From the NCBI RefSeq assembly GCF_056746865.1, contig NZ_CM163382.1: DNA of 64,000 bases; one strand, 5' to 3'. A program made the translations under genes and the position numbers. Positions 9,221 to 64,000 of this stretch are shown one piece after another. Each line of letters opens with the position of its first letter. The first letter of the stretch is position 1. A model generated the notes under the pieces. The model was given only the letters and a program-made list of their open reading frames with translations. It did no database searches and was not told the DNA's origin.

Positions 9221-9227
9221 CTTCTCT

Positions 9228-9264: not shown

Positions 9265-9265
9265 A

Positions 9266-17816: not shown

Positions 17817-18977
17817 ATGGAAAGAGTCAGTATTACCGAGCGCCCGGACTGGCGCGAAAAAGCCCACGAATACGGTTTCAATTTTCACACCATGTACGGC
17901 GAACCGTACTGGTGTGAAGATGCTTACTACAAGTTGACCCTCGCCCAGGTTGAAAAGCTGGAAGAAGTCACCGCCGAACTGCACCAGATGTGCCTGAAAG
18001 TGGTTGAAAAAGTGATCGCCAGCGATGAGCTGATGACCAAATTCCGCATTCCAAAACACACCTGGAGTTTTGTGCGCCAGTCATGGCTGACTCACCAGCC
18101 ATCGCTTTATTCGCGTCTTGATCTGGCGTGGGATGGTACTGGCGAACCTAAACTTCTGGAAAATAACGCCGATACGCCAACGTCACTGTATGAAGCCGCA
18201 TTCTTTCAGTGGATCTGGCTGGAAGATCAGCTTAACGCCGGTAACCTGCCGGAAGGCAGCGACCAGTTTAACAGTCTGCAAGAAAAGCTAATCGATCGCT
18301 TTGTCGAGTTGCGTGAACAGTATGGCTTCCAGTTGCTGCATCTCACCTGCTGTCGCGACACGGTGGAAGATCGCGGAACCATTCAGTATTTGCAGGACTG
18401 CGCGACAGAAGCTGAAATCGCTACTGAATTCCTCTACATCGACGATATCGGTTTAGGCGAAAAAGGTCAGTTCACGGATTTACAAGATCAGGTGATTTCT
18501 AACCTGTTCAAGCTGTATCCGTGGGAATTTATGCTGCGTGAGATGTTCTCCACCAAGCTGGAGGATGCAGGCGTACGCTGGCTGGAACCGGCGTGGAAGA
18601 GCATTATCTCCAACAAAGCGCTTCTACCGCTGTTGTGGGAGATGTTCCCGAATCACCCGAACCTGCTGCCCGCTTATTTTGCGGAAGATGATCATCCGCA
18701 AATGGAAAAATATGTGGTTAAACCGATCTTCTCCCGTGAAGGCGCAAACGTGTCGATCATTGAGAACGGCAAAACCATTGAAGCAGCGGAAGGTCCGTAT
18801 GGCGAAGAAGGGATGATTGTTCAGCAATTCCACCCGTTACCGAAATTCGGCGACAGCTATATGCTGATTGGTAGCTGGCTGGTTAACGATCAACCTGCCG
18901 GAATTGGCATTCGTGAAGACCGTGCATTGATCACCCAGGATATGTCTCGGTTTTATCCGCATATTTTTGTTGAGTAA
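17817..18977 (+). CDS. ygiC: Glutathionylspermidine synthase-like ATP-grasp protein YgiC
   Basis: 386 aa; [32 protein letters not shown]. Confidence 0.85.
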
Positions 18978-19461
18978 TACTGTTCAATATTGCCCCGTTT
19001 ACCGGGGCAATTTATTATACTTCGCAAATCATCACCCCCATCTATATATAATCAATCACATCCATCACTTTTATTTAACATTAATTCCTAATTTAATATT
19101 AAATCGTCATATGTAAGCGATACTGTAATTAAATTAATCAATAAAATCACTTGGTAACCTATTGTTTTATGAGTTTATTTATATCCAACACCGCATCAAA
19201 AATAGATTTAATAATTAAAAAACAATGTCGCTGGGATCACACTACACAATATTGAATATTGTTATTGATATATTGCCCACCTAGTATCGACCAAAAGAAA
19301 ATATTTGTTACAGAGAAATACAAAAATTCTAAAACCAGTAAAAAATATTCATAACGATTATTATTAATACATTTTAATTCACAAAACAAATTTATTAGCA
19401 CCACCTCAACAGTCGATATTCATCATTATTATATATTTGCGTTATATAAGGAGATATATCC

Positions 19462-21258
19462 ATGTTTGATAAATATAGAAAAACTCTGGTAGCCGGAGCT
19501 GTGGCGATAACTCTGGGTTTGTCAGCACCGGGGGTGATGGCAGCAGGTTTTAAACCCGCACCACCTGCCGGGCAACTGGGTGCAGTCATTGTCGATCCCT
19601 ACGGCAATGCACCACTGACCGCTTTGGTTGACTTAGATAGCCATGTCATTTCTGATGTCAAAGTTACCGTCCATGGGAAGGGCGAAAAAGGCGTAGAAAT
19701 CAGCTATCCCGTGGGTCAGGAATCACTAAAAACTTATGATGGTGTACCGATTTTTGGTCTTTATCAGAAATTTGCTAACAAAGTGACCGTTGAGTGGAAA
19801 GAAAACGGCAAGGTCATGAAAGATGATTATGTGGTGCACACTTCGGCCATCGTCAATAATTACATGGATAACCGCTCTATCTCCGATTTACAACAGACCA
19901 AAGTTATTAAAGTCGCACCGGGTTTTGAAGATCGCCTCTATCTGGTTAATACCCACACCTTTACCGCCCAAGGTTCCGATCTCCACTGGCATGGTGAGAA
20001 AGATAAAAATGCCGGTATCCTTGATGCGGGTCCGGCAACCGGCGCACTACCTTTTGATATCGCGCCCTTTACTTTCATTGTCGATACCGAAGGTGAATAC
20101 CGCTGGTGGCTGGATCAAGACACTTTCTACGATGGTCGTGACCGCGATATCAACAAGCGTGGTTATCTGATGGGTATCCGCGAAACACCACGCGGCACCT
20201 TTACCGCTGTACAAGGTCAGCACTGGTACGAGTTCGACATGATGGGGCAGGTGCTCGAAGATCACAAACTACCGCGCGGATTTGCTGACGCCACTCATGA
20301 GTCCATTGAGACGCCTAATGGCACAGTATTGTTGCGCGTAGGTAAGAGCAATTACCGTCGCGATGACGGCGTACACGTCACCACCATTCGTGACCATATC
20401 CTCGAAGTCGATAAATCTGGTCGCGTTGTCGATGTATGGGATCTGACCAAGATCCTCGATCCGAAACGCGATGCACTGCTCGGCGCGCTGGATGCAGGTG
20501 CAGTTTGCGTTAACGTTGACCTTGCCCATGCAGGACAACAGGCAAAACTGGAACCGGATACACCGTTCGGCGACGCGCTGGGTGTAGGGCCAGGTCGTAA
20601 CTGGGCGCACGTTAACTCAATCGCCTATGACGCAAAAGATGACTCAATCATCCTCTCCTCTCGCCACCAGGGTGTTGTGAAAATTGGTCGTGATAAGCAA
20701 GTGAAATGGATCCTTGCGCCCTCTAAAGGTTGGGAAAAACCGCTGGCCAGCAAGCTGCTGAAACCGGTTGATGCTAACGGTAAGCCAATTACCTGTAACG
20801 AAAATGGCCTGTGCGAAAACTCAGACTTCGACTTTACCTACACCCAGCATACCGCCTGGATTTCCAGCAAAGGAACGCTCACCATTTTTGATAATGGCGA
20901 TGGGCGTCATCTGGAACAACCTGCCTTACCAACCATGAAATACTCCCGCTTTGTGGAATATAAGATTGATGAGAAGAAAGGCACCGTTCAGCAAGTGTGG
21001 GAATACGGTAAAGAACGTGGCTACGATTTCTATAGCCCGATTACCTCCATCATTGAATATCAAGCCGACCGTAACACCATGTTTGGCTTCGGTGGTTCTA
21101 TTCATTTGTTCGATGTCGGGCAGCCAACCGTCGGTAAGTTGAACGAAATCGATTACAAAACCAAAGAAGTGAAAGTGGAAATCGACGTGCTGTCAGATAA
21201 ACCCAATCAGACTCACTATCGTGCACTGTTAGTCCGTCCACAACAGATGTTCAAATAA
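19462..21258 (+). CDS. assT: Arylsulfate sulfotransferase (periplasmic, signal peptide)
   Basis: 598 aa; signal peptide MFDKYRKTLVAGAVAITLGLSAPGVMA; family recognised from translation; followed by dedicated DsbL/DsbI genes. Confidence 0.85.
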   Translation: MFDKYRKTLVAGAVAITLGLSAPGVMAAGFKPAPPAGQLGAVIVDPYGNAPLTALVDLDSHVISDVKVTVHGKGEKGVEISYPVGQESLKTYDGVPIFGLYQKFANKVTVEWKENGKVMKDDYVVHTSAIVNNYMDNRSISDLQQTKVIKVAPGFEDRLYLVNTHTFTAQGSDLHWHGEKDKNAGILDAGPATGALPFDIAPFTFIVDTEGEYRWWLDQDTFYDGRDRDINKRGYLMGIRETPRGTFTAVQGQHWYEFDMMGQVLEDHKLPRGFADATHESIETPNGTVLLRVGKSNYRRDDGVHVTTIRDHILEVDKSGRVVDVWDLTKILDPKRDALLGALDAGAVCVNVDLAHAGQQAKLEPDTPFGDALGVGPGRNWAHVNSIAYDAKDDSIILSSRHQGVVKIGRDKQVKWILAPSKGWEKPLASKLLKPVDANGKPITCNENGLCENSDFDFTYTQHTAWISSKGTLTIFDNGDGRHLEQPALPTMKYSRFVEYKIDEKKGTVQQVWEYGKERGYDFYSPITSIIEYQADRNTMFGFGGSIHLFDVGQPTVGKLNEIDYKTKEVKVEIDVLSDKPNQTHYRALLVRPQQMFK

Positions 21259-26230: not shown

Positions 26231-26431
26231 TCAGTGTTCTAATTCAAGTTCTCTGGTTTGCATCATCTGTTGGCAATACCAGGCATAACGTGCGCAAAAC
26301 CAGGTTCTATGTTCTTCATCCATGTTACCAGTAACGGCCAGAATATCGACCGGGCGACCTTCTGCGTGCATTCTGGCAAAACTACGCGCCAGGAAATCGA
26401 AATTATTTAAAGAATTAAGACTATGATCCAT
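26231..26431 (-). CDS. glgS: Surface composition regulator GlgS
   Basis: 66 aa; [33 protein letters not shown]. Confidence 0.9.
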
Positions 26432-26699
26432 AAGCACATCCTCCGGTTATCGCATACCTTTTAAGGCCATATGCTTTTTCTGATTTCAGTATTCCCCAAT
26501 CAGTGTAGTGCCTTTAAACATAACGTGCGTAAATATATTGTCCCCGATCACACTTTTTAGTGAAAAATAAAAAACCATATTAAAAGACTTTCTCTTCCAG
26601 AACTTCTCTAACATGTGTTATTATTAACAAAGATAAATGTAAGCAAGGAAACTATCCTAAAGTAAATATTGCGTCACTAAATGGACATTGGAGTGACAT

Positions 26700-27329
26700 A
26701 TGATTTTATTCGCCGACTATAACACCCCTTATCTTTTCGCTATTTCCTTTGTACTGTTGATCGGCCTTTTAGAAATTTTTGCGCTTATCTGCGGTCATAT
26801 GCTCTCCGGTGCTCTTGATGCACATCTTGACCATTATGATTCCATAACCACAGGTCATATTAGCCAGGCACTTCATTATCTCAATATCGGAAGATTGCCA
26901 GCTCTCGTCGTTCTCTGCTTACTGGCTGGTTTTTTTGGTCTTATTGGCATCCTGTTGCAGCATACCTGCATCATGGTCTGGCAATCACCACTCTCGAACC
27001 TGTTCGTGGTTCCTGTCAGTTTACTGTTTACGATTATTGCGGTGCATTATACCGGTAAAATAGTTGCGCCCTGGATTCCACGCGACCATAGTTCAGCTAT
27101 TACAGAAGAAGAATATATTGGTAGCATGGCGTTAATTACCGGACATCAAGCGACTTCAGGTAATCCCTGCGAAGGAAAACTCACCGATCAATTTGGCCAA
27201 ATACATTATTTACTACTGGAGCCTGAAGAAGGAAAAATTTTCACTAAAGGAGACAAAGTGTTAATTATTTGCCGACTTTCTGCAACGCGATATTTGGCGG
27301 AAAACAATCCCTGGCCCCAAATATTGTAA
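26700..27329 (+). CDS. yqiJ: NfeD-like inner membrane protein YqiJ
   Basis: 209 aa; membrane N-terminal half plus soluble C-terminal OB-like domain; upstream of SPFH gene. Confidence 0.8.
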
Positions 27330-29017: not shown

Positions 29018-29204
29018 ACCCTCTTCTATGAATAATCCCTGGCCCAAAAAGCCGGGGATTTTTTATATCTGCGTTCCGCTAAAAGGTGCAAATGATCAGG
29101 CTGTTGCAGCATTTTGCGTGACCGCTCGGGGAAGGGAAAACTGCCTCTGGGAAAGCGTTGCGCGGGGTCTGGCGCTCATCAACAATCGGGGAGTCAGCAG
29201 GGGG

Positions 29205-29350
29205 CTGAAACGGGAAAGCCCCTCCCGAAGAAGGGGCCTTATAGAAGGAAAGGGTTATGATGAAGCTCGTCATCATACTGATTGTGTTGTTACTAGTAAG
29301 TTTCCAGGCTTATTAACAACCAATTCAGAGGGGGGAGAAATCCTCCCTTA
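29205..29350 (-). ncRNA. sibD: Sib antisense RNA (antitoxin to Ibs), copy 1; boundaries approximate
   Basis: Antisense to ibs ORF; GC hairpin GCCCCT-CCCGAAGA-AGGGGC at 29217-29240 fits a minus-strand terminator; boundaries inferred. Confidence 0.5.
29257..29316 (+). CDS. ibsD: Ibs-family type I toxin (19 aa hydrophobic peptide MMKLVIILIVLLLVSFQAY)
   Basis: ATG ATG AAG CTC GTC ATC ATA CTG... TAA; matches Ibs toxin family; located between yqiK and hldE as ibsD/ibsE are in E. coli. Confidence 0.7.
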   Translation: MMKLVIILIVLLLVSFQAY

Positions 29351-29582
29351 CCCTTGTTCCTTTACTTTAGGTTGAAAAAAAATCAGCGTCAAGAAGGTTT
29401 CTCTATCCCACATCCCTGGCCCAAAAAGCCGGGGATTTTTTATATCTGCGTTCCGCTAAAAGGTGCAAATGATCAGGCTGTTGCAGCATTTTGCGTGACG
29501 GCTCGGGGAAGGCAAAACTGCATCAGGGAAAGCATTGCGCGGGGTCTGGCGCTCATCAACAATCGGGGAGTCAGCAAGGGGC

Positions 29583-29727
29583 TGAAACGGGAAAGCCCCT
29601 CCCGAAGAAGGGGCCTTGTATAAGGAAAGGGTTATGATGAAGCTGGTCATCATACTGATTGTGTTGTTACTCGTAAGTTTCGCAGCTTATTAACAGCCAA
29701 TCAGAGGGGGGAGAAATCCTCCCTCAC
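29583..29727 (-). ncRNA. sibE: Sib antisense RNA, copy 2; boundaries approximate
   Basis: Antisense to second ibs ORF; same hairpin structure as copy 1. Confidence 0.5.
29634..29693 (+). CDS. ibsE: Ibs-family type I toxin (MMKLVIILIVLLLVSFAAY)
   Basis: Second copy of 19-codon hydrophobic ORF; differs from copy 1 by Q17A. Confidence 0.7.
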   Translation: MMKLVIILIVLLLVSFAAY

Positions 29728-29812
29728 CCTTGTTCCTTTACTTTAGGTTGAAAAAAAAACAGCGTCAATAGGCCTGCCAGGTTCGAAGCGAGATCTGTGA
29801 ACCGCTTTCCGG

Positions 29813-49878: not shown

Positions 49879-50003
49879 ATTTACTCCTTTCTAACATCAC
49901 CAGGAAAAGTATAACGGATTGAAAATACATTGTTTATAAAAACAGCAGGCGCGCGGTAATGGCTGGATTGCGACACGGAGTTACTTTATAATCCGCTACC
50001 ATG

Positions 50004-50078
50004 GCCCCTTAGCTCAGTGGTTAGAGCAGGCGACTCATAATCGCTTGGTCGTTGGTTCAAACCCAACAGGGGCCACCA
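50004..50078 (+). tRNA. ileX: tRNA-Ile (anticodon CAU; lysidine-modified Ile2 type)
   Basis: GGCCCCTTAGCTCAGTGGTTAGAGCAGGCGACTCATAATCGCTTGGTCGTTGGTTCAAACCCAACAGGGGCCACCA; cloverleaf with CAT anticodon in loop CTCATAA; encoded CCA. Confidence 0.9.
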
Positions 50079-50088
50079 TACACAACAA

Positions 50089-50121
50089 AGGGTTAGCTAA
50101 TAAACCAGCTAACCCTTTTTC
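50089..50121 (+). terminator. tRNA-Ile intrinsic terminator
   Basis: AGGGTTAGCT-AATAAACC-AGCTAACCCT followed by TTTTTCTTTTT. Confidence 0.65.
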
Positions 50122-50176
50122 TTTTTCCTTTGAATTGGGTCAGGTAATGGGTCAGGTAAGCTTTTTTCCATCTGAC

Positions 50177-51022
50177 TCAGATGGCTGATAATTGTCCCGG
50201 ATAACGCTTTGCAATGATGTCATTTAGCCGATCAACCAGTTCTGGTTTTCTGAATGTGATATGCGCGGAGCCCTTCTTAAAGTATCTGATGCTGAACATC
50301 TCATCTTCATAGCTCTCTTTACCCTGAACAGACTGAATGTGCTCATCCAGACGAATAGTGATGTTTTCCCGATTGTCGGGGATTGGTTTACCGCTGAACA
50401 GGTGCAACATTCTTTCCAGATCGGCGAGTCGGTCAGCCTGTTGTCCGGTGATAAGATGAAATCCCCACCGGTCCCATCTCACCAGATTGTTGACGATAAT
50501 TTTACTGCCAAATTTACAGGGGCAATTGGTTTTGTAATTCCAGTTCAGCCCTCTGAAGACGTTGATCACCCCTCGCTCAAACACCTCATCCTTATTCTGG
50601 TGCAGTTGTTCAAATGTGCTCAGGATGTTCGCTTCGCTGATTTCCGGAAAATTATCGTACTCCAGTGACCGGTACCATGTCTCACGGGCCTGTGCATCCA
50701 TTAAGGAAAGCATCCCGGAACGTTGCATCAAGTCACGCCAGATTTCACGATCGAGATTGTGTGTGATGGCTTTCATTGCCGTTTCAGGTTTCTCCATGAG
50801 CCAGCAGCCACAGCGAAAATCCTGTTTCATCGCCCAGTCCAGTGCGGTTTTACCGCCAATACTTTCTGTCATTGCTGAGATTTCAGCCAGTTGCCGGATA
50901 AGTGTGTTGATTTGCAGCAGTGTACTTTTTCGTACAGCCAGAATGTGGCGGATACTGGTTGAGCAGATAACGTCCGTATGCCCGTTGACTACTTCCGGAC
51001 GGGAGGCTGTGATATCAGACAT
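50177..51022 (-). CDS. Uncharacterised island protein (281 aa; possibly DUF4942 family)
   Basis: Long clean ORF at tRNA-proximal end of island; family assignment from memory only. Confidence 0.55.
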   Translation of the reverse strand: MSDITASRPEVVNGHTDVICSTSIRHILAVRKSTLLQINTLIRQLAEISAMTESIGGKTALDWAMKQDFRCGCWLMEKPETAMKAITHNLDREIWRDLMQRSGMLSLMDAQARETWYRSLEYDNFPEISEANILSTFEQLHQNKDEVFERGVINVFRGLNWNYKTNCPCKFGSKIIVNNLVRWDRWGFHLITGQQADRLADLERMLHLFSGKPIPDNRENITIRLDEHIQSVQGKESYEDEMFSIRYFKKGSAHITFRKPELVDRLNDIIAKRYPGQLSAI

Positions 51023-51118
51023 AATCGATATTCCTTTTTGCAGATAAATGAAAACGCCAGCCCTGTTCAGGCTGGCGTCAGTGGAATGAAGTCTGGTGAG
51101 TGAGATGATGAGTGAAAC

Positions 51119-51316
51119 TCACCGGTTCGGGGGCTGAAGCTGCAGTTGGCGCAGGGTACGGATATCCTCCCTGGCCTGTTCAATACAGGACAACAGGGCT
51201 GTCGAATCCGTTTTATCCTCATCGTTGTCAAAGATAATTCCGGATTCACAGTCGATATTGTCCTGCAGCCACGCAATCAGAATATCCAGCGCTGTTTCCG
51301 TGGTTAATGATTTCAT
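51119..51316 (-). CDS. Small uncharacterised island protein (65 aa from MKSLTTET; possibly DUF957)
   Basis: ORF 51119..51361 trimmed to internal Met to avoid overlap with upstream ORF; acidic small protein. Confidence 0.4.
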   Translation of the reverse strand: MKSLTTETALDILIAWLQDNIDCESGIIFDNDEDKTDSTALLSCIEQAREDIRTLRQLQLQPPNR

Positions 51317-51327
51317 GTTGTTTCTGG

Positions 51328-51816
51328 TTACCAGTCGAAAGTGGGTAAATCCGGCAGACACCCGGCGCTGGCATCCAGATGAATAAGACTGACGCCATAA
51401 CGCCGGATGAGAGTGACAACCAGACGGCGGAAGGTTTTTGACAGGCCCAGACGTTTAAGGTGTAGCACCGGATACGACAAAGCATCGGTACGTAACAGAT
51501 ACCCTCTGCCTGTAAAATGAATCCATTCTGATTCGCCGGTGTCATTCGTCTGATGCGACAGCGAGTACAGCCAGGTGTTGTCCGTTTCCGTGATATGTGC
51601 GGTACTGCAGCGTATGCCGGTAAGGGCAGCAAATGGTGGCGTGCAGTCTGCTGAGGTCCGGTCAGATTCATCAACAACACGAAGGGAGTAGCCGTTATCG
51701 CAGATCATGTTAATCAGTTCAGCGAGATTAACACCATCAATGTCAACGACAATTCGCCCCATATTCAGTGCCTGTACGTTAACGCTGTCGGCTTCCAGTG
51801 TCAGGGTCAGTTGCAT
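51328..51816 (-). CDS. YeeW-like uncharacterised protein downstream of cbtA
   Basis: 162 aa ORF immediately after cbtA stop, position equivalent to yeeW in CP4-44. Confidence 0.45.
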
Positions 51817-52190
51817 CGTTTCGACTCCTGATGCTTACCCAGGGTAATGTTATTTACCGTTCTGTAATTGTCGCGGGTCATCAGGCCGGTTGCCCGGCGA
51901 GCCCGGAGAATATCAATACTGTTTATTAACTGAGAGCGGGTACAGGCGCTGAATCCCGGCTGGTCGGTACGTACCAGTGCGTATTTTTCAACGAGAAAGT
52001 TCACCGCATCGCACAGTGAAATGCCTGCCTCAATATGCTGCTCAATCACACGTTCATCAGCGAACGGTGTGTCATTCAGCGTAAGGCCGTAATGCTGGTC
52101 CAGCAGTCGGGTGAGCAGTGTCTGCCAGATTTCAACCGGAGACGGGCGTGAACTGGCCGCCTGCCCGGGTAATACAGGTAATGTTTTCAT
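51807..52190 (-). CDS. cbtA: CbtA/YeeV-family type IV toxin (cytoskeleton-binding toxin)
   Basis: ORF trimmed to [23 protein letters not shown]...; family conserved sequence. Confidence 0.8.
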
Positions 52191-52279
52191 ACTGAAGATT
52201 TTCCTGATATGCAGAGATGAAAAATGGAAAAGTGGCGTGGTGAAAGCACCAGGCCGGAGCAGAAGGTTATTCTGGATAG

Positions 52280-52648
52280 TTACCTTTTCGTTTCGGGCGT
52301 CGGATAAACAGCCATATAAACGTAGCCACAACTGCCGAGGGTGTCGGCTTCGCAGGTCAGCCCTTTTGCATACAGCGTGACGGTATGCTGATGGCGGGAA
52401 TTCAGTTCACCGCTGGTGAGCATGAGTTCCAGTTGTTTCATCAGCAGCGGAAAGGCCTGGTCCAGGTGGTACGAATCCGCGTCGCTGAACCGGCCTCTGA
52501 TACCGGCGCGGTCGGCAAGGTAATGCAACCGGTTGCCCTCCTGCACCAGACGGGCGCCAAAACAAGGTGTCACGGTACAGGGCAGCCCCCACCAGGGGCG
52601 GTCGTGATTGTCATCGGGATGCGTTGTCCCGGGCAGTGTGTCTGACAC
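52280..52648 (-). CDS. cbeA: CbeA/YeeU-family antitoxin
   Basis: 122 aa; [48 protein letters not shown]. Confidence 0.8.
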
Positions 52649-52727
52649 AATAAAATCCTCACAGAAAATTGGTTAAGAATGGTCCGGTGGTGGCGATAAT
52701 TCTGCTCTTCTGAATGCCCTTCCGGAC

Positions 52728-52949
52728 TCAGTTCAGGGTGACGCTCATCAGCCGGACATACGGACCAAAACTGTCCTTACGGCGTTCTGCAAACACAGCC
52801 AGCACACCGGGAATATCCTGCACTTCACGGCCGGTATATGTATCCGTGCTACCGTGCCAGCGGTATTTGCCGGTACAGAACGGAAAAAGACGGGATGCCG
52901 GATGTTGTTGGTGAATACGCATGGCTTCACCACGGGTGATGATTTTCAT
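52728..52949 (-). CDS. YeeT/DUF987 protein
   Basis: 73 aa; MKIITRGEAMRIHQQHPASRLFPF; conserved partner upstream of cbeA. Confidence 0.7.
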   Translation of the reverse strand: MKIITRGEAMRIHQQHPASRLFPFCTGKYRWHGSTDTYTGREVQDIPGVLAVFAERRKDSFGPYVRLMSVTLN

Positions 52950-53017
52950 GGTGTGATACCTCTTAAGACAGAAGATAAAAGTGAAAACAGGTGTGATGTG
53001 GTGGTGACGGTGACGGG

Positions 53018-53494
53018 TTAAAGCAGACCGTGTTCCGCAAAGGAGAAAACCTGGCTGCCACCGACTATCAGATGGTCCGGTACCCGGATATCCACCAGGC
53101 CCAGTGCCTGTACCAGACGTTCCGTGATAAGGCGGTCTGCCTTGCTGGGTGTGACTTCACCGGACGGGTGATTGTGTGCCAGCACCACGGCAGCGGCATT
53201 GTGGTACAGGGCACGTTTAATCACTTCCCGGGGATGGACTTCCGTGCGGTTGATGGTGCCGGTGAAGAGGGTTTCACCGGCAATCAGCTGATTCTGGTTG
53301 TTCAGATACAGCACCCGGAACTCTTCCCGCTCCAGTCCCGCCATGTTCAGAATCAGCCACTCCCGTGCCGCATGCGTGGAGGTGAAGGCCACGCCGGGTT
53401 CATGAAGATGGCGGTCCAGGGTTTTCAGGGCCCGCTGAATGAGGCTGCGCTCGCCGGGCGTCATCTCTCCGGGCAGAAAAGAAAGCTGTTGCAT
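53018..53494 (-). CDS. RadC-like JAB-domain protein (YeeS/YfjY family)
   Basis: 158 aa; JAMM motif HNHPSGEVTPSKAD. Confidence 0.85.
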   Translation of the reverse strand: MQQLSFLPGEMTPGERSLIQRALKTLDRHLHEPGVAFTSTHAAREWLILNMAGLEREEFRVLYLNNQNQLIAGETLFTGTINRTEVHPREVIKRALYHNAAAVVLAHNHPSGEVTPSKADRLITERLVQALGLVDIRVPDHLIVGGSQVFSFAEHGLL

Positions 53495-53508
53495 TGTTCC
53501 GGCCCCTT

Positions 53509-53994
53509 TCAGTCAATGATGCGCATAATGGCGTTGCATTCCGGATGCTGCAGGGCGTAATCCCGCAGCCGGTAATAATGGACCGTCATGGCATAACACT
53601 CCGTACGACAGGCATGATGGCTGTACGTCATCAGACAGGCAGCAATGCCGGCGGCTTCCGGGCTCATTTCAGCGCGGTTACCGTTCATGGCACTGAACAG
53701 TACCCATGTTTCGTCATCATCGTCATCCGGTTCGGGTGCCATAAATGCCCCGCCGTTGTTCAGGGTGTACAGATTCCAGATACCACCACAGTAGTCTTCG
53801 CACAGACGATCCATCCAGCCGAAGACACGGGGCTCCAGGGTCACCCACTGTGGAATGAGGCCAAAATGCTGCGGCCAGAAGCTGATGCGCTGTTCATCAG
53901 GGACGAGGGTGGCAACCAGTTGAGGCGGGTTATTCTCTGATACAGCGGTTACGGAAACAGAAGGTGTGGTGGAATTATGCAAAACGGTTGTCAT
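53509..53994 (-). CDS. Antirestriction protein (ArdB/KlcA/YfjX family)
   Basis: 161 aa; family-typical C-terminal region; position upstream of radC-like gene as in CP4-57 yfjX. Confidence 0.7.
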   Translation of the reverse strand: MTTVLHNSTTPSVSVTAVSENNPPQLVATLVPDEQRISFWPQHFGLIPQWVTLEPRVFGWMDRLCEDYCGGIWNLYTLNNGGAFMAPEPDDDDDETWVLFSAMNGNRAEMSPEAAGIAACLMTYSHHACRTECYAMTVHYYRLRDYALQHPECNAIMRIID

Positions 53995-54084
53995 GAGATT
54001 ATTCCTTATAAAAAGTAAATGAATGGAAGAAGTCGCGGGGCAGGGACGGACATGAGTCAGAACTGCGCTTTCAGGGAAAAGGCA

Positions 54085-54903
54085 TCAGCGCATACTCTTC
54101 AGCAGTGTTTCTGCCATCACCCACAATGCGCGATTGAGCTTAATGTCGGTGTCGATGCTGTGAATGGCACGGGTATGGATACGTTTTCCTCTGGCACTGC
54201 GACCGGAAATCCCGCCTTTCAGCATATTCTCCTGGATGGTCTGATAAGCACTCCACAGGTCCTTACCGTAATCCTCCCGGCGTCGCGGTGTCAGAATGTC
54301 AGCAGCGGTGACGGGCTGATGTTCGTCACCATAACGGTAAGTCAGTGCCGCCTGTGCCAGCGCCTGGCGTGCCGGTGGCGGCAGGACCAGCGACTGCATG
54401 GCATCACGCTTCTCCTCAATCCGGTCAAAAACCCCCACCACCTCGTAAGCCCCTTCGATAACTTTCTCCACTACGTCTCCCCGGTGTGGAACACGCACTT
54501 CCCCCAGAGACTGACCACAGACGCATCCGTTCTGGCAGACGAACCTGAAGTAACCCGGCAGCATCTGGTAGCTGGAGGTACCGTCATGGGAGTTCAGCAG
54601 GATGATTTCAGGGACATGTTGTCCGTTTATCTCCCCGTCACGGCGCAGACGCAGCATGTGTTTGGTGTATCCCCGGCGGCCCGGGTCGCGCACGCGGGTC
54701 TGGCAGGCGAAGAATGGCTGGAAGCCTTCCCGCTGCAGGCTTTCCAGCACGGTGATGGTGGGGATCCAGGTATAGTTCTCGCTTCTGGATGTGTGTTTCT
54801 CTTCCCCGAATACGCTGGGGACGACCTGCATCAGTTCTTCACGGGTTAAGGGGCGGTCACGGCGTATCTGGTTCGCATAACCAAAACGACTGGCTAATCG
54901 CAT
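54085..54903 (-). CDS. DUF932 protein (YfjQ/YafZ family)
   Basis: 272 aa; MRLASRFGYANQIRRDRPLTREELMQVVPSVFGEEKH. Confidence 0.75.
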   Translation of the reverse strand: MRLASRFGYANQIRRDRPLTREELMQVVPSVFGEEKHTSRSENYTWIPTITVLESLQREGFQPFFACQTRVRDPGRRGYTKHMLRLRRDGEINGQHVPEIILLNSHDGTSSYQMLPGYFRFVCQNGCVCGQSLGEVRVPHRGDVVEKVIEGAYEVVGVFDRIEEKRDAMQSLVLPPPARQALAQAALTYRYGDEHQPVTAADILTPRRREDYGKDLWSAYQTIQENMLKGGISGRSARGKRIHTRAIHSIDTDIKLNRALWVMAETLLKSMR

Positions 54904-55174
54904 GATTTATTCCTTATGAATGAGTTAGCGGTGTAAATGAAAAAGCCGCGTCTCCCGGAGAAGACGCGGCCTGATGGACGAAATGAATGACGTTTATTGT
55001 CTGAGAAGCCCTTCACTGGCGAGCTGCGTATTTTTATGGAAGGAGATCACCCAATAACCCCATCGGGATCGGGCAATAACCGGCCAAATTGTGAACGATT
55101 CAGATGCCATTTGGCAGCAAAAGAGCCTTCGGCAATAAACGTGATGTACAACCCGGCATATCTGTTGCTCCCTG

Positions 55175-55207
55175 AAAGTAAAAAGCCCCGGTCATTATGA
55201 CCGGGGC
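55175..55207 (-). terminator. Ag43 intrinsic terminator
   Basis: GCCCCGGTCAT-TATGACCGGGGC hairpin followed on minus strand by TTTTTACTTTC. Confidence 0.6.
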
Positions 55208-55229
55208 CTGAAGGGGAGTGACCTGATTA

Positions 55230-58076
55230 TCAGAAAGTCACATTCAGCGTGGCCTGACCGTTATAGCCTTCAGCGCTGTTGCCGCTGACACTGTGGGCAT
55301 AACCGGCCTGAACGCCCAGAGTGATATTTTCCCGGACACGGGCTTCCAGTCCGGCCTGCAGGTCCAGTGACGTGCCATTCTGTGACGGTGAGAACGTCAT
55401 GTTACTGCCGGCTTCAGCTGTACCCATGCTCATGTCACCCCGGGAGCTGAAAGTGCGGATAACAGAAGGCTGTACCCACCAGTTCACCGGCAGTTCACTC
55501 ACACGGTGTTTTGTACTGTCGCGCAGAGTGTCACGGGATGAGGTGCCTTCGCCAAAGGTCATATCGTTGTGGCTGCCCAGACGGAAGCCGGCACGCACAT
55601 GTTGTGTACTGCCATGCCCGAACTTCACATAACCGGCGTTATCCTGGCCGTCATCCAGGGAGAGCCCCTGCCAGGTGTACTGCAGTTGTGGCTCCAGCAT
55701 CAGGTTGTCAGTGATACTGAAGGGCAGACCGGTTTCCAGTGAGCCCAGCCAGCCCCAGCCCCGGGCGCGGAAGTCGTTATTGTCCGATGACGCTTTCATG
55801 CTGTGGCGGGTTCCCTGTGCCACAATGTCAGCCCACAGGCCGGAGGACGTGTGTGTCAGATTCAGGTATCCGCCCAGGCTGCCGGCATCATCCCGGACTG
55901 TGCCGGCGCGGGAACCGTCATCATCCTTAACATCAACGGAAGAATGACCTGCAGCACCATACACCCCTGTCGTCAGAGACATACCTGCAACCTCTGTTCT
56001 CAGCAGGTCACCCTCCAGACGGACGAAGCCATAGCTGCCGCTGCTTTCCGGCGTGGCTCCACGGGCAATACCGCCGTTGTTATCGTGACCGAGATGACCG
56101 CCCTGAATGCTGAGACGGACGCTGTTATTTTCACCGTTTACACCGGTCTGATGGCTGCGGGAGCCTGCCAGAATCCGGTCATAGTCCATTGCCTGTGTCA
56201 GCATGGAGGCATACAGGGGGACTTCAGCACGATAAGCATTTTCACTGCGCAGGTACCAGTCTTCATCGCTGTCACGGTTCAGGGTGTAGTTAAAGGCACC
56301 GGCCTGAAGCGGGCGACTCAGGGCAAACGCACCTTCTTCTGTGGTGGCACCATTCTGTGCATCCACAACCCGGATACCCTGTCCGGAGGTTGCCACCCCG
56401 AGGTTACTGTTTCCGACATTTGTGAACGCAAGCCAGGTTTTGCCGGTTGCCTGACCACCATTAATCACCAGCTGGTCAGAGGCATTGCTGCCATCAAGGC
56501 GAACACGCATATTGATGGTGCCACCCTGACCGGTGAGGTTACTGGTTGTCAGTTTATGGAACGTTACCGGGGCGTTGCCTTTTGCAACAGCACGGCTCAG
56601 TATGGCATCCGGTGTTGTCTGATTGTCAAAGTAAATCTCCCCTGCGTTAACAATATCGCCGGTACTGACCACATCACCATTCAGTACCATGCTGGCGCCT
56701 TTACTGAGCTGTGTTCTGCCACTCAGACTTCCCCCGGCAGCCAGCATCAGTGTTCCACGATGTCCGACAGTGGTGTTGCCAGCCTGTCCCCCGGCATTAA
56801 CCGTAAAGCTGCCGCCATTTTCCAGCAGCAGGCCGCTGGCCTGACCGGATATGCCATCAATACTGAACTTACCGCTGGCATTGGTCCCCTCAACAGTGGC
56901 ACCACTGTCTGCAATCAGGGCACCACCGGATGTCATGGTGACACCTGTCGCCTTACCACCGGCAGACACTGCCAGGGTTCCGCCGTCATCCACCCGTGTT
57001 TTCTGCGCTGAATGGCCCTCCAGTACATCCAGGCGACCGCCGGACTCCAGAACAACACCGTCAGCCTTACCGTTTTCCACCGTGAAATTCCCCAGACGGT
57101 TGCTGCCGGTGACGGTTGCCGCCGTACTGGTGACCAGTGCGCCGCCCTGCTTCAGGGTGACATTCGTGGCTGTACCACCGGCGTTCACCTGCAGTTTGCC
57201 TTTCTGGTTAACGGTGGAGAAATCCGCCAGACCACCTTCCTTGATAATCTGCCAGCCGTCACTGTTTACAACAGTGCCAGACGCCGTACCGCCGTTGTGC
57301 ACATACTGGTACCCCCCATTCAGCGTGGTATCCAGTGCGTGACCATGTACAGTCTGGTCGCCGCCGGCATAAACCACAGTGGTATTTGCCGTTCCTTCAG
57401 CAGCCACAATCTGACGACCATTTTTATTGATGGTGGTGCGTACGGCATCTCCGTAGACGGTCTGCCCGGTATCACCATTTTCTGCATCCGGTCCCCCTTC
57501 CGCGCCGGTATTCACAACCGTGTCGGTTGCCATTGCGCCGGATTTGACGGCCTGCCAGCCCTTCTCATTAATGACGGTACCCGTTGCAATCCCGCCTTCA
57601 TGTATCCACTGCTCACCGCCGTTCAGAGTGGTGTTCACTGCCTGCCCCTGAAGGCTCTGTCCGCCTCCGGCACTGATAACCGTGTCTGAAACGCTTCCTC
57701 CGGCATTCACTCTCTGAAGACCACCACCGGTGACAGTAGTGTTGTTGGCGGTACCGCCATTTTGTATCCATTGGCCGCCGGTATTCGCCTCGTTATCCGG
57801 CCCATACTCCAGCCCGGTACTGATGGTCATTCCGTTGGCCGTACCGAAGACAATCTGGTTGTCATGATTTGTCAGTGTTCCGCCGCTCACGGTTTCTCCC
57901 GCCTGTACGACCGTGTCAGCAGCCAGTACCGGGACTGACGTGACAGCAGCAAGAGACAGCGCAACCGCCACACCGGTGCGTTTTCCCCGTGAGCGCGCCA
58001 GTTCGGAAGCCACCACCAGGGTGCCCGTAATGTGATTCCATACCAGCCTGTAGCTGGTGTTCAGATGTCGTTTCAT
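55230..58076 (-). CDS. flu: Antigen 43 self-associating autotransporter adhesin (short ~950 aa variant)
   Basis: ORF trimmed to MKRHLNTSYRLVWNHITGTLVVASELARSRGKR extended signal peptide; beta-helical passenger repeats; C-terminal beta-barrel ending ...YNGQATLNVTF. Confidence 0.9.
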   Translation of the reverse strand: MKRHLNTSYRLVWNHITGTLVVASELARSRGKRTGVAVALSLAAVTSVPVLAADTVVQAGETVSGGTLTNHDNQIVFGTANGMTISTGLEYGPDNEANTGGQWIQNGGTANNTTVTGGGLQRVNAGGSVSDTVISAGGGQSLQGQAVNTTLNGGEQWIHEGGIATGTVINEKGWQAVKSGAMATDTVVNTGAEGGPDAENGDTGQTVYGDAVRTTINKNGRQIVAAEGTANTTVVYAGGDQTVHGHALDTTLNGGYQYVHNGGTASGTVVNSDGWQIIKEGGLADFSTVNQKGKLQVNAGGTATNVTLKQGGALVTSTAATVTGSNRLGNFTVENGKADGVVLESGGRLDVLEGHSAQKTRVDDGGTLAVSAGGKATGVTMTSGGALIADSGATVEGTNASGKFSIDGISGQASGLLLENGGSFTVNAGGQAGNTTVGHRGTLMLAAGGSLSGRTQLSKGASMVLNGDVVSTGDIVNAGEIYFDNQTTPDAILSRAVAKGNAPVTFHKLTTSNLTGQGGTINMRVRLDGSNASDQLVINGGQATGKTWLAFTNVGNSNLGVATSGQGIRVVDAQNGATTEEGAFALSRPLQAGAFNYTLNRDSDEDWYLRSENAYRAEVPLYASMLTQAMDYDRILAGSRSHQTGVNGENNSVRLSIQGGHLGHDNNGGIARGATPESSGSYGFVRLEGDLLRTEVAGMSLTTGVYGAAGHSSVDVKDDDGSRAGTVRDDAGSLGGYLNLTHTSSGLWADIVAQGTRHSMKASSDNNDFRARGWGWLGSLETGLPFSITDNLMLEPQLQYTWQGLSLDDGQDNAGYVKFGHGSTQHVRAGFRLGSHNDMTFGEGTSSRDTLRDSTKHRVSELPVNWWVQPSVIRTFSSRGDMSMGTAEAGSNMTFSPSQNGTSLDLQAGLEARVRENITLGVQAGYAHSVSGNSAEGYNGQATLNVTF

Positions 58077-58293
58077 CAGCTTTTCCTTACAGAGGGTGAA
58101 TAAAAAAGCCGGTACCCACAAATGTGGATACCGGCAGGTACAAAACAGCATGGTCAGATAAAGTGGTTTTTCCCGGACATAAATGCTTCCCCTCTCTCAT
58201 CCGCCAGAGAAGTATCAGTCCGTTGTGTGCAATTCCGTTCTGCATGATGAAGAGATTCAACTGCCTTTTCGCAGGCCATTAACCACTATAAAC

Positions 58294-58329
58294 GATCGAT
58301 AGTAACGATCGATACCTGTTTTATTGATC
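58294..58329. promoter_or_regulatory. Three clustered Dam GATC sites (Ag43 phase-variation switch / OxyR operator)
   Basis: GATC at 58294, 58307 and 58326 within 36 bp (AACGATCGATAGTAACGATCGATACCTGTTTTATTGATCG) ~220 bp upstream of Ag43 start. Confidence 0.7.
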
Positions 58330-58448
58330 GTTTTATTCTATTGATTGCAAGGCGGTCACGCAAGAGAAACAGGAGGATCATGAGGTGTTTGTGTCATGTT
58401 TTCAGTTGGTTAACGCAATGTAATCAGGCATTTCCCCTGGCAGACTGT

Positions 58449-59321
58449 TCAGAAGAAAATCCAGTTCCATACAGCGCGGGCAACAGAGACCACCGAGTCA
58501 CGGACGGCACGCAGAACCGTGCGTGCAACAGAGGCAATACAGACGCTCTCCGCCGTGTCAAATATCCGGTCCACCGCACCGGTAAACTGTTCACGGGCCT
58601 GAGACCGGACAGATTCCGTGCGCAGCTCGTCCTGCAGGCGGGTCATCAGGGGACTGGCGGCATGGTCGGGAAGCGCTGTCATGAGCGCACTGACCAGCGT
58701 ATCCAGTTCCCAGCCGGTGCAGGCCGATACGGCCACAACCGGATGTACGGGTCGGAACAGCCGGAATACCGCATCTGTTTTCTCACGAATGTTCTGTGCC
58801 TGTGCGGGAGAAGGCTGAATGCCGGCCATATCCCATTCATGGCAGGGCTCCGTTTTGTCGGCCTGCGTCACCACAAACAGTACCCGCTGATGTCCCCGGT
58901 GCAGGATGTGTCGCCAGAAATACTCATCCACAGACAGGGCACGGTCATCGGCTTTAATCAGCCACAGTACCAGGTCAAGTTCAGGCAGAATGTTACGGTA
59001 CAGGGCTTCATACTCTGCATCCCTGTCCCGGCTCTCGCCCACCCCGGGCAGGTCAGTGATAATCATGCTGTGACCGTGGCCACTCAGACGGAAGCGCTGC
59101 ACTTCCCGGGTGCCGGCGTGAACATCACTGACCGGTGTGACTTCCCCCTGAAACAGCGCATTACAGAGTGAGGATTTACCGGCCCCGCTTTTACCCATAA
59201 TGCCAATCACGGGTTCGTGGCTGGTGAGTTTACGCAGATGTTCCAGGATGTGACGGGAAAGCGAATAAGGCAGGGAGGAGAGCGGTTTTTCAATTGCCTC
59301 AATGGCATCAGACGGATTCAT
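58449..59321 (-). CDS. YfjP/YeeP/YkfA-family GTPase
   Basis: P-loop GKSGAGKSS, G3 DLPG, G4 TQADK; start taken at MNPSDAIEAIEK (ORF extends to 59360). Confidence 0.75.
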   Translation of the reverse strand: MNPSDAIEAIEKPLSSLPYSLSRHILEHLRKLTSHEPVIGIMGKSGAGKSSLCNALFQGEVTPVSDVHAGTREVQRFRLSGHGHSMIITDLPGVGESRDRDAEYEALYRNILPELDLVLWLIKADDRALSVDEYFWRHILHRGHQRVLFVVTQADKTEPCHEWDMAGIQPSPAQAQNIREKTDAVFRLFRPVHPVVAVSACTGWELDTLVSALMTALPDHAASPLMTRLQDELRTESVRSQAREQFTGAVDRIFDTAESVCIASVARTVLRAVRDSVVSVARAVWNWIFF

Positions 59322-59584
59322 ATATGTATTCCCGGTGAAAAAAGACAAAACCCCGCGCACCGGAAAGGTGGCGGGGGATTCACGGAGATAATATCTGTCT
59401 GAAATTATTTAGAATGCACCTGGTGCACTGCAAAGGAAAGGCAGTATTCCGTTCCTCCTCCTTGTCGTGAATACCCCAGGTATCTCACAATGTACACCGA
59501 CTTACTCCGGGGCTGCCTGAACCACAAGATTGCTGTAGAATTGCCCCCAATGATTCAGGTCCAAACCAGGCAAATGGATTAAAA

Positions 59585-61141
59585 ATGACAAGTATTCAAC
59601 AACGAGCAGAACTGCACCGCCAGATATGGCAAATTGCCAATGATGTCAGAGGTTCTGTTGACGGATGGGATTTTAAGCAATACGTTCTGGGCGCACTTTT
59701 CTACCGTTTTATCAGCGAAAATTTTTCCAGTTATATTGAAGCCGGTGATGACAGTATCTGTTATGCGAAACTGGATGACAGCGTAATTACTGATGACATT
59801 AAAGACGATGCCATCAAAACTAAAGGCTACTTCATCTACCCCAGTCAGCTTTTCTGCAACGTAGCGGCGAAAGCAAATACTAATGACAGGCTGAATGCAG
59901 ATTTAAACAGCATCTTCGTTGCTATCGAAAGTTCTGCTTACGGTTATCCTTCAGAAGCTGACATCAAAGGTTTGTTTGCTGATTTCGATACCACCAGTAA
60001 CCGCCTGGGTAACACCGTTAAGGATAAAAATGCCCGCCTGGCTGCGGTTCTGAAAGGGGTTGAAGGGTTAAAACTTGGTGACTTCAACGAACATCAGATT
60101 GACCTGTTCGGTGATGCCTATGAGTTCCTGATTTCTAACTATGCGGCAAATGCCGGTAAGTCAGGCGGTGAGTTCTTTACACCGCAGCACGTCTCCAGGC
60201 TGATTGCACAACTGGCTATGCACGGGCAGACCAGCGTTAACAAAATCTACGACCCGGCAGCGGGTTCCGGCTCACTGTTGTTGCAGGCGAAAAAACAGTT
60301 TGATAACCACATCATCGAAGAAGGCTTTTTCGGTCAGGAAATCAACCATACGACCTATAACCTGGCGCGTATGAACATGTTTTTGCACAACATCAACTAC
60401 GACAAGTTTGATATCAAGCTGGGTAATACACTGACTGAGCCACACTTCAGAGATGAAAAACCGTTTGATGCCATCGTTTCTAACCCGCCGTATTCGGTGA
60501 AATGGATTGGCAGCGATGACCCGACGCTGATTAACGATGAACGTTTTGCCCCGGCTGGCGTTCTGGCCCCCAAATCAAAAGCTGACTTCGCCTTTGTACT
60601 ACATGCGCTGAACTATCTTTCTGCCAAAGGTCGCGCCGCGATTGTCTGCTTCCCGGGTATTTTTTACCGTGGCGGCGCGGAGCAGAAAATCCGTCAGTAT
60701 CTGGTCGATAATAACTATGTCGAAACCGTGATTTCACTGGCACCGAACCTGTTCTTTGGCACCACCATTGCCGTCAATATTCTGGTGCTGTCTAAACATA
60801 AAACGGATACCAAAGTTCAGTTTATTGACGCCAGCGAACTGTTCAAAAAAGAGACTAATAACAACATCCTGACCGATGCTCATATCGAACAGATTATGCA
60901 GGTATTTGCCGGCAAGGAAGATGTTGCTCATCTGGCGAAATCTGTCACGTTTGAGACTGTTGTCGCGAATGACTATAACCTGTCGGTGAGCAGCTATGTG
61001 GAAGCGAAAGATAACCGCGAAGTGGTGGACATTGCTCAGCTCAACGCCGAGCTGAAATCTACTGTCGCCAGGATTGACCAGCTTCGCAGGGATATTGATG
61101 CCATCGTCGCTGAAATTGAAGGCGAGGAGCAGGAGGCATGA
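59585..61141 (+). CDS. hsdM: Type I restriction-modification methyltransferase subunit HsdM (type IC, EcoR124-like)
   Basis: 518 aa; SAM-binding DPAAGSGS and catalytic NPPY motif; overlaps hsdS by 4 nt. Confidence 0.9.
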
Positions 61142-62343
61142 GTAGCGTGAACTTCTTGGAAAAGCTGTTGGATGGCGTTGAGGTCGAGTGGAAGACACTT
61201 GGGCAAACTTGCAAAATTGAAACAGGAAAGCTTAATGCGAATGCGGCTGTTGATGATGGAGAGTATATGTTCTTCACGACAGCCAAAGAGACAAGCAAAA
61301 TTGATAAATTCCGCTGGGATACAGAGGCATTGCTGATTGCAGGCAATGCGAATGTTGGTGAGGTGAAGCATTACATCGGCAAGTTTGAGGCTTATCAGCG
61401 CACCTATGTTCTGACAAATTTCGACGAAAATGTAAGTGTTAGATTTTTGTATTTTGTGCTTAGCCATAGCCTGAAGAAATATCTCGAGGAAAGAACAAAT
61501 AGCGCGGCAATGACATATATCGTGCTATCAACCTTAGAGAATTTCCCTATCCCCATCCCCTGCCCAGGCAACCCCCAAAAATCCCTTGCCATCCAGTCTG
61601 AAATCGTTCGGATTCTGGATAAATTTACTGCACTTACCGCTGAGCTTACCGCTGAGCTTAACATGCGTAAAAAACAGTACAACTACTATCGCGACCAGTT
61701 GTTGAGTTTTAAAGAGGGTGAGGTTGAGTGGAAGACTTTGGGGGAAATTGGAGATTTTACATATGGATATGCAGCCAAAGCCATGGATTCAGGAGATGCC
61801 CGTTTCGTGAGAATTACTGACATAAATAAAGACGGGAAGCTATCGAAAGAAAACCCAATGTACGTTGAATTAAATGAGGAAAATGAGAAATATACCTTAG
61901 ACAAAAATGATTTACTCATGGCAAGAACTGGGGCAACCTTTGGTAAAACAATGATTTTTGAAGAAGATTATCCAGCAGTATACGCTGGTTTTTTAATAAA
62001 GTTGAACCTAAATAAAACGATTATTAATGCCAAATATTACTGGCACTTTGCACAAAGTGATTTTTTTTGGGAACAGGCTAATAAATTAGTATCTGGTGGT
62101 GGGCAACCACAGTTTAATGCTAATGCACTGAAACAAGTCAGAGTACCTATTCCATACCCATCTCACCCTCAAAAATCTTTAGACGAACAGGGGCGTATTG
62201 TGGATATTCTGGATAAGTTTGATGCAATCGCAGCTTCCATCACCGAAGGTCTCCCGCGTGAAATCGAGTTACGTCAAAAACAATACGAATACTATCGTGA
62301 TTTACTGCTCAGTTTCCCAAAACCTGAAACTGTCAGTAAATAA
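61138..62343 (+). CDS. hsdS: Type I R-M specificity subunit HsdS (type IC)
   Basis: 401 aa; two TRDs separated by central conserved region with TAELTAEL repeat and conserved KKQYxYYRDxLLSF blocks after each TRD. Confidence 0.85.
61627..61659 (+). repeat. Tandem 12-bp repeat (ACCGCTGAGCTT x2, preceded by partial ACTGCACTT) encoding TAEL-TAEL in hsdS
   Basis: Direct reading of hsdS codons 164-174: [11 protein letters not shown]. Confidence 0.8.
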
Positions 62344-62464
62344 TTGACCATTGCTACCGACCGGGCCTCCTTAACATCCGGTCAGTATATAGACTATTTT
62401 TTACGCGCCGGAAGTCACTCTTAACGCCCTTCCGGCTCTTGCCAGGCGGCACAAAGGATGCGCT

Positions 62465-64000
62465 ATGACTCATCAAACACACACCATTGCTGAATCCAAT
62501 AACTTTATCGTCCTTGATAAGTACATCAAAGCTGAGCAAACAAGCGACAGCTACCAGAGCGAATCGGACCTGGAACGTGAACTGATTCAGGACCTGCGGA
62601 ATCAGGGTTATGAATTTATTTCCGTAAAATCACAGTCGGCAATGCTGTCTAATGTTCGGGAACAGCTTCAGAGCCTCAATGGTGTGATGTTTAATGACAG
62701 CGAGTGGCGGCGCTTCACGGAGCAGTATCTGGACAACCCCAGCGATGGTATTCTGGATAAAACCCGTAAAATCCATATCGACTATATCTGCGACTTTATT
62801 TTTGACGACGGGCGACTTGAGAACATCTATTTGATAGATAAAAAGAATCTCATGCGCAATAAGGTGCAGATTATCCAGCAGTTTGAACAGACGGGTTCTC
62901 ATGCTAACCGTTATGACGTCACGATCCTGGTTAATGGTTTACCGCTGGTGCAAATCGAACTAAAAAAACGCGGGGTGGCGATTCGTGAGGCTTTCAACCA
63001 GATACATCGTTACAGTAAAGAGAGTTTTAACAGCGAAAATTCCCTGTTTAAGTATCTGCAACTGTTTGTCATTTCTAACGGCACCGATACCCGTTATTTT
63101 GCCAACACGACAAAGCGCGATAAAAACAGTTTTGACTTCACCATGAATTGGGCGAAATCAGACAACACGCTGATTAAAGACCTCAAAGACTTTACCGCTA
63201 CCTTTTTCCAGAAACATACTCTGCTGAATGTTCTGGTGAACTACAGCGTTTTTGACAGTAGTCAGACGCTACTGGTGATGCGACCGTACCAGATTGCCGC
63301 CACCGAGCGCATTCTGTGGAAAATTAAGAGTTCCTTTACAGCGAAGAACTGGTCAAAACCGGAAAGCGGTGGGTATATCTGGCACACTACCGGTTCTGGT
63401 AAAACCCTCACCAGCTTTAAAGCCGCGCGTCTGGCAACAGAGCTGGACTTTATTGATAAAGTCTTCTTTGTGGTCGACAGGAAAGACCTCGATTACCAGA
63501 CCATGAAGGAATATCAGCGTTTTTCGCCAGACAGCGTCAACGGCTCGGAAAATACCGCAGGCCTTAAACGAAATCTGGATAAGGACGATAACAAAATTAT
63601 CGTCACTACTATTCAGAAACTCAATAACCTGATGAAAGCAGAAAGCGACCTGCCTGTATATAATCAGCAAGTGGTGTTTATATTTGATGAATGCCACCGC
63701 AGCCAGTTTGGAGAAGCGCAGAAAAACCTGAAGAAGAAATTCAAACGCTATTATCAGTTTGGTTTTACCGGCACCCCTATTTTCCCGGAAAACGCCTTAG
63801 GCTCAGAAACAACCGCCAGCGTATTTGGCCGTGAATTGCATTCGTATGTGATTACCGATGCGATTCGTGACGAAAAAGTGCTCAAATTCAAGGTGGACTA
63901 CAACGATGTGCGGCCACAGTTTAAGTCTTTAGAGACAGAAACTGACGAGAAAAAACTGAGTGCGGCTGAAAATCAGCAGGCGTTTCTTCACCCCATGCGT
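62465..64000 (+). CDS. hsdR: Type I restriction endonuclease subunit HsdR (type IC), 5' portion only, truncated by window end
   Basis: In-frame translation [20 protein letters not shown]...; helicase motif I TGSGKT and motif II DECH; open to window end (not in ORF track because no stop). Confidence 0.9.

Follow-up and report, generated by a model that had tools for sequence, protein, structure and literature searches.

Mosaic specificity gene and AT-rich target recognition domains in a predicted type IC restriction-modification operon

Background

Does a local drop in GC content within a restriction specificity gene record an exchange of its target recognition domains (TRDs)? The question is raised by hsdS, located near the right end of a 64,000-nucleotide stretch of DNA (contig NZ_CM163382.1 of assembly GCF_056746865.1; hereafter the window). 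An initial annotation, made from the letters alone, held that the TRDs of this gene are compositionally foreign, that their low GC is the signature of TRD swapping by recombination, and that the sequence recognized may therefore not match that of any characterized type IC enzyme. We examined the operon, the composition of its segments and their distribution among other alleles, and these three claims fared differently.

Type IC systems were classically defined by genetic complementation or by antibody cross-reactivity with type IC subunits. As hallmarks of the family, the target is bipartite and asymmetric, both of its strands receive m6A, and ATP-dependent cleavage occurs at a distance from it.

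Results and discussion

Operon layout and family assignment

Three genes in the order hsdM-hsdS-hsdR were identified at the right end of the window:

59585..61141, + strand, ORF: hsdM, type IC methyltransferase subunit (518 aa)
61138..62343, + strand, ORF: hsdS, specificity subunit (401 aa)
62465..64000, + strand, ORF: hsdR, 5' half, running past the window edge

The hsdM stop codon overlaps the hsdS start codon (ATGA), and 121 bp separate hsdS from hsdR. The hsdS product is identical to RefSeq WP_059239974.1, which is annotated in strains PEC148 and 2452, and contains two Pfam Methylase_S domains (residues 15–174 and 196–377). All three proteins were called type I subunits by PADLOC, with hsdM as MTase_I. 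The hsdR gene of the window is itself incomplete at the edge; strain PEC148, with 8 differences from the final 11.9 kb of the window, has a full-length hsdR of 3117 bp at the corresponding position (RefSeq). A promoter and terminator scan yielded nothing above the shuffle expectation, its one promoter-like site (62371–62400) being at chance level.

Three features associate these genes with family IC: i) HsdM and HsdR are closely similar to the EcoR124-type subunits, with 1132 bits for HsdM against the EcoR124 M protein (PDB 7bst_D, residues 1–515) and 1122 bits for the first 511 aa of HsdR against EcoR124 HsdR (PDB 2w00_A, residues 1–511), ii) HsdS aligns with EcoR124 HsdS (7bst_A, E=7e-71), sharing its layout and the TAEL repeats of the central block and showing identity in the conserved blocks only, and iii) the ORFs and the RefSeq annotation agree on the order hsdM-hsdS-hsdR with a separate downstream hsdR. 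Judged by sequence, the operon is an EcoR124-family (type IC) type I restriction-modification system.

Segments and internal repeats of hsdS

Using alignments to EcoR124I HsdS (7bst_A) and to other alleles to set the borders, hsdS was divided as follows:

61138..61203, + strand: N-terminal conserved block, aligning to EcoR124I residues 1–22
61204..61554, + strand: TRD1, the N-terminal target recognition domain (residues 23–139), in which similarity to the EcoR124I TRDs is absent
61555..61752, + strand: central conserved block (D1 helix), near-identical to EcoR124I HsdS residues ~140–205
61633..61659, + strand: two 12-bp repeat copies encoding (L)TAEL, read from the sequence and also found as repeat family D6
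61753..62172, + strand: TRD2, the C-terminal target recognition domain (residues 206–345), supported by GC statistics and allele comparison
62173..62343, + strand: C-terminal conserved block (D2 helix), a homologue of the central block that aligns to EcoR124I residues ~357–403, with direct repeats of ~600-bp period at 72–77% identity

This segmentation agrees with the domain coordinates of the initial annotation, which had put the two TRDs within 61200–62150. The N-terminal block consists of part of the distal helix region and a VEVEWKTLG junction, a motif repeated at 61719–61747 with 83% identity. The central block carries LTAELTAEL, two copies as in EcoR124I (EcoR124II has three). Direct repeats with a period of ~600 bp run through hsdS, with 72–83% identity between the junctions and helices of its two halves, and they provide the homology on which TRD exchange depends.

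At its end TRD2 has a PYPSHPQKS junction, which the distal junction of EcoR124I lacks. An 11-residue stretch there mirrors the junction of the central block (62146–62177 versus 61552–61583, 72% DNA identity). In an alignment of TRD2 relatives from other phyla this junction insertion is variably present or absent, suggesting that the cassette border lies downstream of the insertion.

Base composition of the allele

The GC content of the whole window is 0.512. Along the operon, GC (and GC3) were:

hsdM: 0.469 (0.528)
N-terminal conserved block: 0.50
TRD1: 0.413 (0.444)
central conserved block: 0.465 (0.53)
TRD2: 0.362 (0.286)
C-terminal conserved block: 0.417 (0.357)

The initial annotation had given about 50% GC for hsdM and the conserved blocks, which is somewhat high (45–47% measured), and had described TRD2 as strongly AT-rich with long A/T runs, which proved correct. 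In windowed GC, TRD2 ranks among the lowest 1.4% of 400-bp stretches of the window, and its GC3 (29%) falls below the values for the conserved hsdS blocks (49%; Fisher p=4e-4) and for hsdM (p=3e-7). Since TRD2 (0.40) scarcely differs from the other segments (0.43) in GC at first and second positions, the shift is synonymous and does not reflect amino-acid content. TRD1 had been called intermediate; this holds numerically (GC 0.413) but not statistically, its GC3 being indistinguishable from that of the conserved hsdS blocks (p=0.46) and of hsdM (p=0.10).

TRD2 contains a T8 tract (62061–62068), a T6 tract (61989–61994) and several A/T-only runs of 8–12 nt between 61822 and 62088. No sign of phase variation at the T6 and T8 tracts was seen. 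The copy on plasmid p1-HYM1 has T5 in place of the T6 at 61989–61994 and is annotated as frameshifted; as hsdM of this plasmid is also frameshifted, the T5 in its hsdS is probably a sequencing error. Other 400-bp stretches of lowest GC in the window lie at 9201–9971, 18811–19611 and 26351–26881, the second of which includes the gap between ygiC (end 18977) and an aryl-sulfate sulfotransferase gene (start 19462).

Low GC as a trait of the TRD family

The composition of TRD2 takes on another meaning when set beside that of other alleles. For this comparison, 60 type IC hsdS alleles were taken from virus-classified contigs and E. coli replicons, and their TRDs were delimited by aligning the three conserved blocks. 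Both TRDs were poorer in GC than the conserved blocks in all 60 alleles, a sample that consists mostly of virus-classified contigs and E. coli plasmids and is not random for type IC. Within it, the TRD families have mean GC of 0.38–0.39 and GC3 of ~0.33, as against 0.46 and 0.52 for the conserved blocks and a GC of 0.47 for the end of hsdM. TRD2 of the window stands at the 29th percentile of the TRD families and TRD1 exceeds 80% of them in GC; TRD2 is thus a typical member of the family and TRD1 one of its most GC-rich. Relatives of TRD2 in other phyla likewise have a GC below that of their own surroundings at 11 of 12 loci. Taken together, the 60 alleles and the loci of other phyla indicate that the TRD cassette pool as a whole is AT-rich. 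A recent survey reports deviation of hsd genes in GC from their host genomes across prokaryotes (PMC12255300).

Low GC therefore does not show that this allele recently took in foreign DNA or underwent a swap. Of the proposal that TRDs had been swapped by recombination and that composition was the signature of this, the first part is upheld by the allele comparison given below and the second fails, the same low GC being present in 60/60 alleles. For the scanning of genomes, the lesson is that low GC in the variable regions of hsdS is no evidence of a recent or unusual event.

As for why TRDs are AT-rich, recombination may be limited to the conserved blocks, so that GC-biased gene conversion acts there; alternatively, selection may favor AT-rich cassettes silenced by nucleoid proteins. 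Two readings, that the universal AT-richness of TRDs has a mechanistic cause and that the target of this TRD1/TRD2 pair is not yet assigned to any enzyme, are given a low probability. If a mechanistic cause did operate, TRD composition would not be simply a trace of horizontal transfer.

An alternative is that TRD2 entered recently from a non-enterobacterial donor of low GC, whose composition it would still show. Its GC3 of 0.29, compared to 0.49–0.53 in the rest of hsdS and in hsdM, would fit such an origin, as would its relatives among the matches listed: the closest non-enteric one, from a Porphyromonas cangingivalis MAG, has 74% amino acid identity (TRD GC 0.33), and others from the low-GC lineages Clostridiales, Lachnospiraceae and Leptospira have 50–68%. 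However, the scan of genome contigs for a donor, in which a generic KQYEYYR pattern dominated the matches listed, gave no near-identical non-enteric DNA among those matches, 74% protein identity being the best. Moreover, every other TRD of the family is about equally AT-rich, with TRD2 of the window average among them, and even where the host itself is low in GC, relatives of TRD2 are AT-rich compared to the DNA around them, so that donor composition alone is no explanation. We consider such an import quite unlikely and return to the view that AT-richness belongs to the cassette pool.

Re-assortment of TRDs among alleles

Evidence for exchange came from how the two TRDs are distributed over 5426 complete E. 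coli genomes. In 48 of these, hsdS was found whole (at least 80% coverage), with TRD1 and TRD2 together. TRD1 taken alone was found in 63 E. coli records (61 genomes), all 63 with at least 99% identity, and TRD2 taken alone in 96 records (93 genomes), 89 of them with at least 99% identity and the next class at ~78%.

Each TRD was also found with an unrelated partner. Plasmid pYPE3-114k has an identical TRD1 (100%) and an unrelated TRD2. Conversely, TRD1 of pTB222 is unrelated, and between 61701 and at least 63600, i.e. from TRD2 into hsdR, this plasmid matches the window at 100% identity. Identity to pTB222 climbs from 66–90% to 99–100% across 61501–61800, a switch that locates a crossover within the central conserved block, at ~61600–61700. 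The hsdS of the window is thus a mosaic, its 5' part (TRD1) and its 3' part (TRD2 to hsdR) being common to different sets of plasmid alleles.

Conserved-block backbones of at least three kinds (overall identity 100/99.8%, 99.0% and 98.2%) in turn carry the same TRD pair. Compared to the allele of a P1-like plasmid, the TRDs are 100% identical, whereas the flanking conserved DNA is only 74–95% identical. In the 60-allele sample, 54 TRD families occur in 41 N/C combinations, the TRD2 family of the window pairs with five different N-terminal TRD families, and two TRD families have members in the N as well as the C position.

A further difference from plasmid alleles was observed at 61001–61200, made up of ~140 bp at the end of hsdM and ~60 bp at the start of hsdS, which is only 73–76% identical to plasmid alleles to which the DNA flanking this patch is 94–100% identical. 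It forms a third variable patch beside the two TRDs, situated where the C-terminal tail of HsdM meets the N-terminus of HsdS, and these two parts may co-vary.

These distributions bear on whether the TRDs could have diverged in place, by diversifying or relaxed selection with AT-biased mutation and no exchange of cassettes. TRDs are indeed the variable parts of hsdS, and the shift in TRD2 is concentrated at synonymous third positions, as mutation bias would give. Yet the variants are discrete and form no continuum (at least 99% identity in 63/63 for TRD1 and in 89/96 for TRD2, with the next at ~78%), and identical TRDs stand beside conserved blocks that differ by 5–25%, the opposite of what divergence in place predicts; this explanation is very improbable. 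That the GC dip is a biologically meaningless effect of chance or amino-acid composition, as the short length of the compared segments (350–420 bp) and the non-significant result for TRD1 against the conserved blocks (p=0.46) might allow, has a negligible probability and is refuted for TRD2 by its GC3 (p=4e-4 and p=3e-7) with nearly equal first and second positions, and by the same direction in 60/60 alleles.

We regard it as very probable that all parts of the preferred reading hold together, i.e. that this is a type IC operon, that its TRD cassettes were re-assorted, and that AT-richness is a property of the cassette pool. The mosaic allele is real but ordinary: the phenomenon is long known and this instance is already known in kind. 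TRD exchange in type IC enzymes, like the setting of spacing by TAEL copies, is a textbook matter (PMC3874165).

Recognition specificity and proposed mechanism

When aligned separately to 7bst_A, TRD1 (E=0.057) and TRD2 (E=0.1) matched at the junctions only; neither resembles the EcoR124I TRDs outside the conserved blocks in this alignment. A search of solved structures with each TRD gave no significant match to any S subunit. As its TRDs are unrelated to those of EcoR124I, the target of the window enzyme is not GAA N6-7 RTCG. The early suspicion of an unfamiliar specificity is therefore sustained with respect to EcoR124I and EcoR124II, from whose target that of this allele differs; near-identity of the TRDs to those of EcoR124I would have contradicted it and was not found.

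No named characterized enzyme appeared among the TRD homologues in the matches listed, which favor short proteins, and a recognition site for this allele was not found in the literature, including an ST101 methylome preprint. Since the allele is common, a site assignment derived from REBASE or SMRT data is likely to exist already. A link of TRD2 to NgoAV (GCA N8 TGC), by way of a 69%-identical half-size HsdS from Neisseria mucosa, was considered and rejected: LEAT repeats and a truncation within the central block characterize NgoAV, while a distal-helix sequence forms the end of the N. mucosa protein.

From membership in the family we infer the enzymology, spacing and activity of this operon. 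By analogy, each TRD would read one half of a bipartite target, TRD1 the 5' half-site and TRD2 the 3' half-site. TAEL copy number sets the spacer in type IC enzymes (PMC3874165), and the pair of TAEL repeats that HsdS has in its central helix would set the spacing of the half-sites, with the methylated adenines predicted to lie 7 nt apart as in EcoR124I. An M2S1 complex would methylate the target, and R2M2S1 would translocate on and cut unmodified DNA. New specificities arise when homologous crossover within the conserved blocks puts pre-existing TRD cassettes into new combinations, of which the allele of the window is one.

Genomic island and other features of the window

At its distal end, an island inserted beside a tRNA gene carries hsdMSR as cargo; the part of the island ahead of the operon spans 50003–59420. 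Features located in this part include:

50003..50078: tRNA gene, CAT anticodon (RefSeq: tRNA-Ile)
~53510..53995, minus strand: antirestriction protein gene
55230..58151: Ag43
58449..59360: YeeP-like GTPase

The genes are ordered as CbtA/YeeU toxin-antitoxin, JAB/RadC-like, antirestriction, DUF932, Ag43 and YeeP-like GTPase, and a DUF4942 gene is also present. With the antirestriction gene and the hsdMSR cargo, one island thus carries both antirestriction and type I restriction. The island of strain EF5-18-41 matches at 99.5% identity as far as ~59418, beyond which IS30, IS91, mcr-1.1 and ISApl1 are found in place of hsdMSR. Strain PEC148 has the same island end at another chromosomal site.

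Elsewhere in the window, two direct repeats of ~360 bp (29035–29768) are ~95.5% identical to their counterparts in EF5-18-41, in which two Ibs-family type I toxin genes are annotated at the corresponding position. These repeats are probably ibs/sib repeat units.

Distribution and comparison with known systems

The exact protein (WP_059239974.1) is present on at least 1000 public contigs and a plasmid variant on 779, and copies were found on 28 PLSDB plasmids from E. coli, Klebsiella, Salmonella and E. fergusonii. Carriers include strains PEC148, 2452 and 210205630 and the P1-like plasmid pAH25-2. The TRD pair travels on mcr-1-type phage-plasmid backbones as well as in chromosomal islands. By analogy with the family, its carriers, both strains and P1-like phage-plasmids, would methylate and restrict a target other than that of EcoR124I. 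A different target would affect how plasmids and phages move between E. coli from livestock and from the clinic, with little practical consequence.

Relatives of TRD2 in other phyla have 50–74% amino acid identity and a type IC-like distal helix (KQYEYYRD), and they occur in several architectures: single-TRD half-size HsdS of 194–212 aa in Leptospira interrogans, Neisseria mucosa and a Lachnospiraceae MAG, two-TRD HsdS with TAEL repeats (398 aa) in Clostridiales, a three-TRD protein (617 aa) in an Acetatifactor MAG, and an HsdM-HsdS fusion (816 aa) with a TRD2-family domain in a Thermodesulfobacteriota MAG. The predominance of half-size proteins is probably a search bias, because the matches listed were shorter than ~260 aa and the 401-aa E. 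coli proteins were missing from them. Unlike half-size or fused HsdS proteins (the truncated NgoAV-like type and EcoDXXI deltaN), HsdS of the window is a normal two-TRD protein.

The closest well-known systems are EcoR124I and EcoR124II, in which HsdM, the N-terminal half of HsdR and the conserved blocks of HsdS are near-identical to those of the window. EcoR124I likewise has two TAEL repeats and the same M-S-R gene order. In contrast, both of its TRDs are unrelated to those of the window and it lacks the PYPSHPQKS junction seen in TRD2; moreover, EcoR124 resides on plasmid R124, whereas the window operon is on a chromosomal island.

Pairings that arose, as here, by crossover between the TRDs are also known from the hybrids of EcoR124I with EcoDXXI (EcoDR2/RD2) and from StySQ/StySJ (PMC3874165). 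Those hybrids differ in having measured specificities.

The nearest counterpart of the TRD pair is found in P1-like phage-plasmids of Enterobacteriaceae (e.g. 1332KP plasmid unnamed1, HsdS WP_001293319.1). Their type IC system has a TRD pair 100% identical at the DNA level and an hsdR 99–100% identical to that of the window, but it is only ~75% identical to window positions 61001–61200 and 91–95% identical in the C-terminal block, and it stands in another genomic context.
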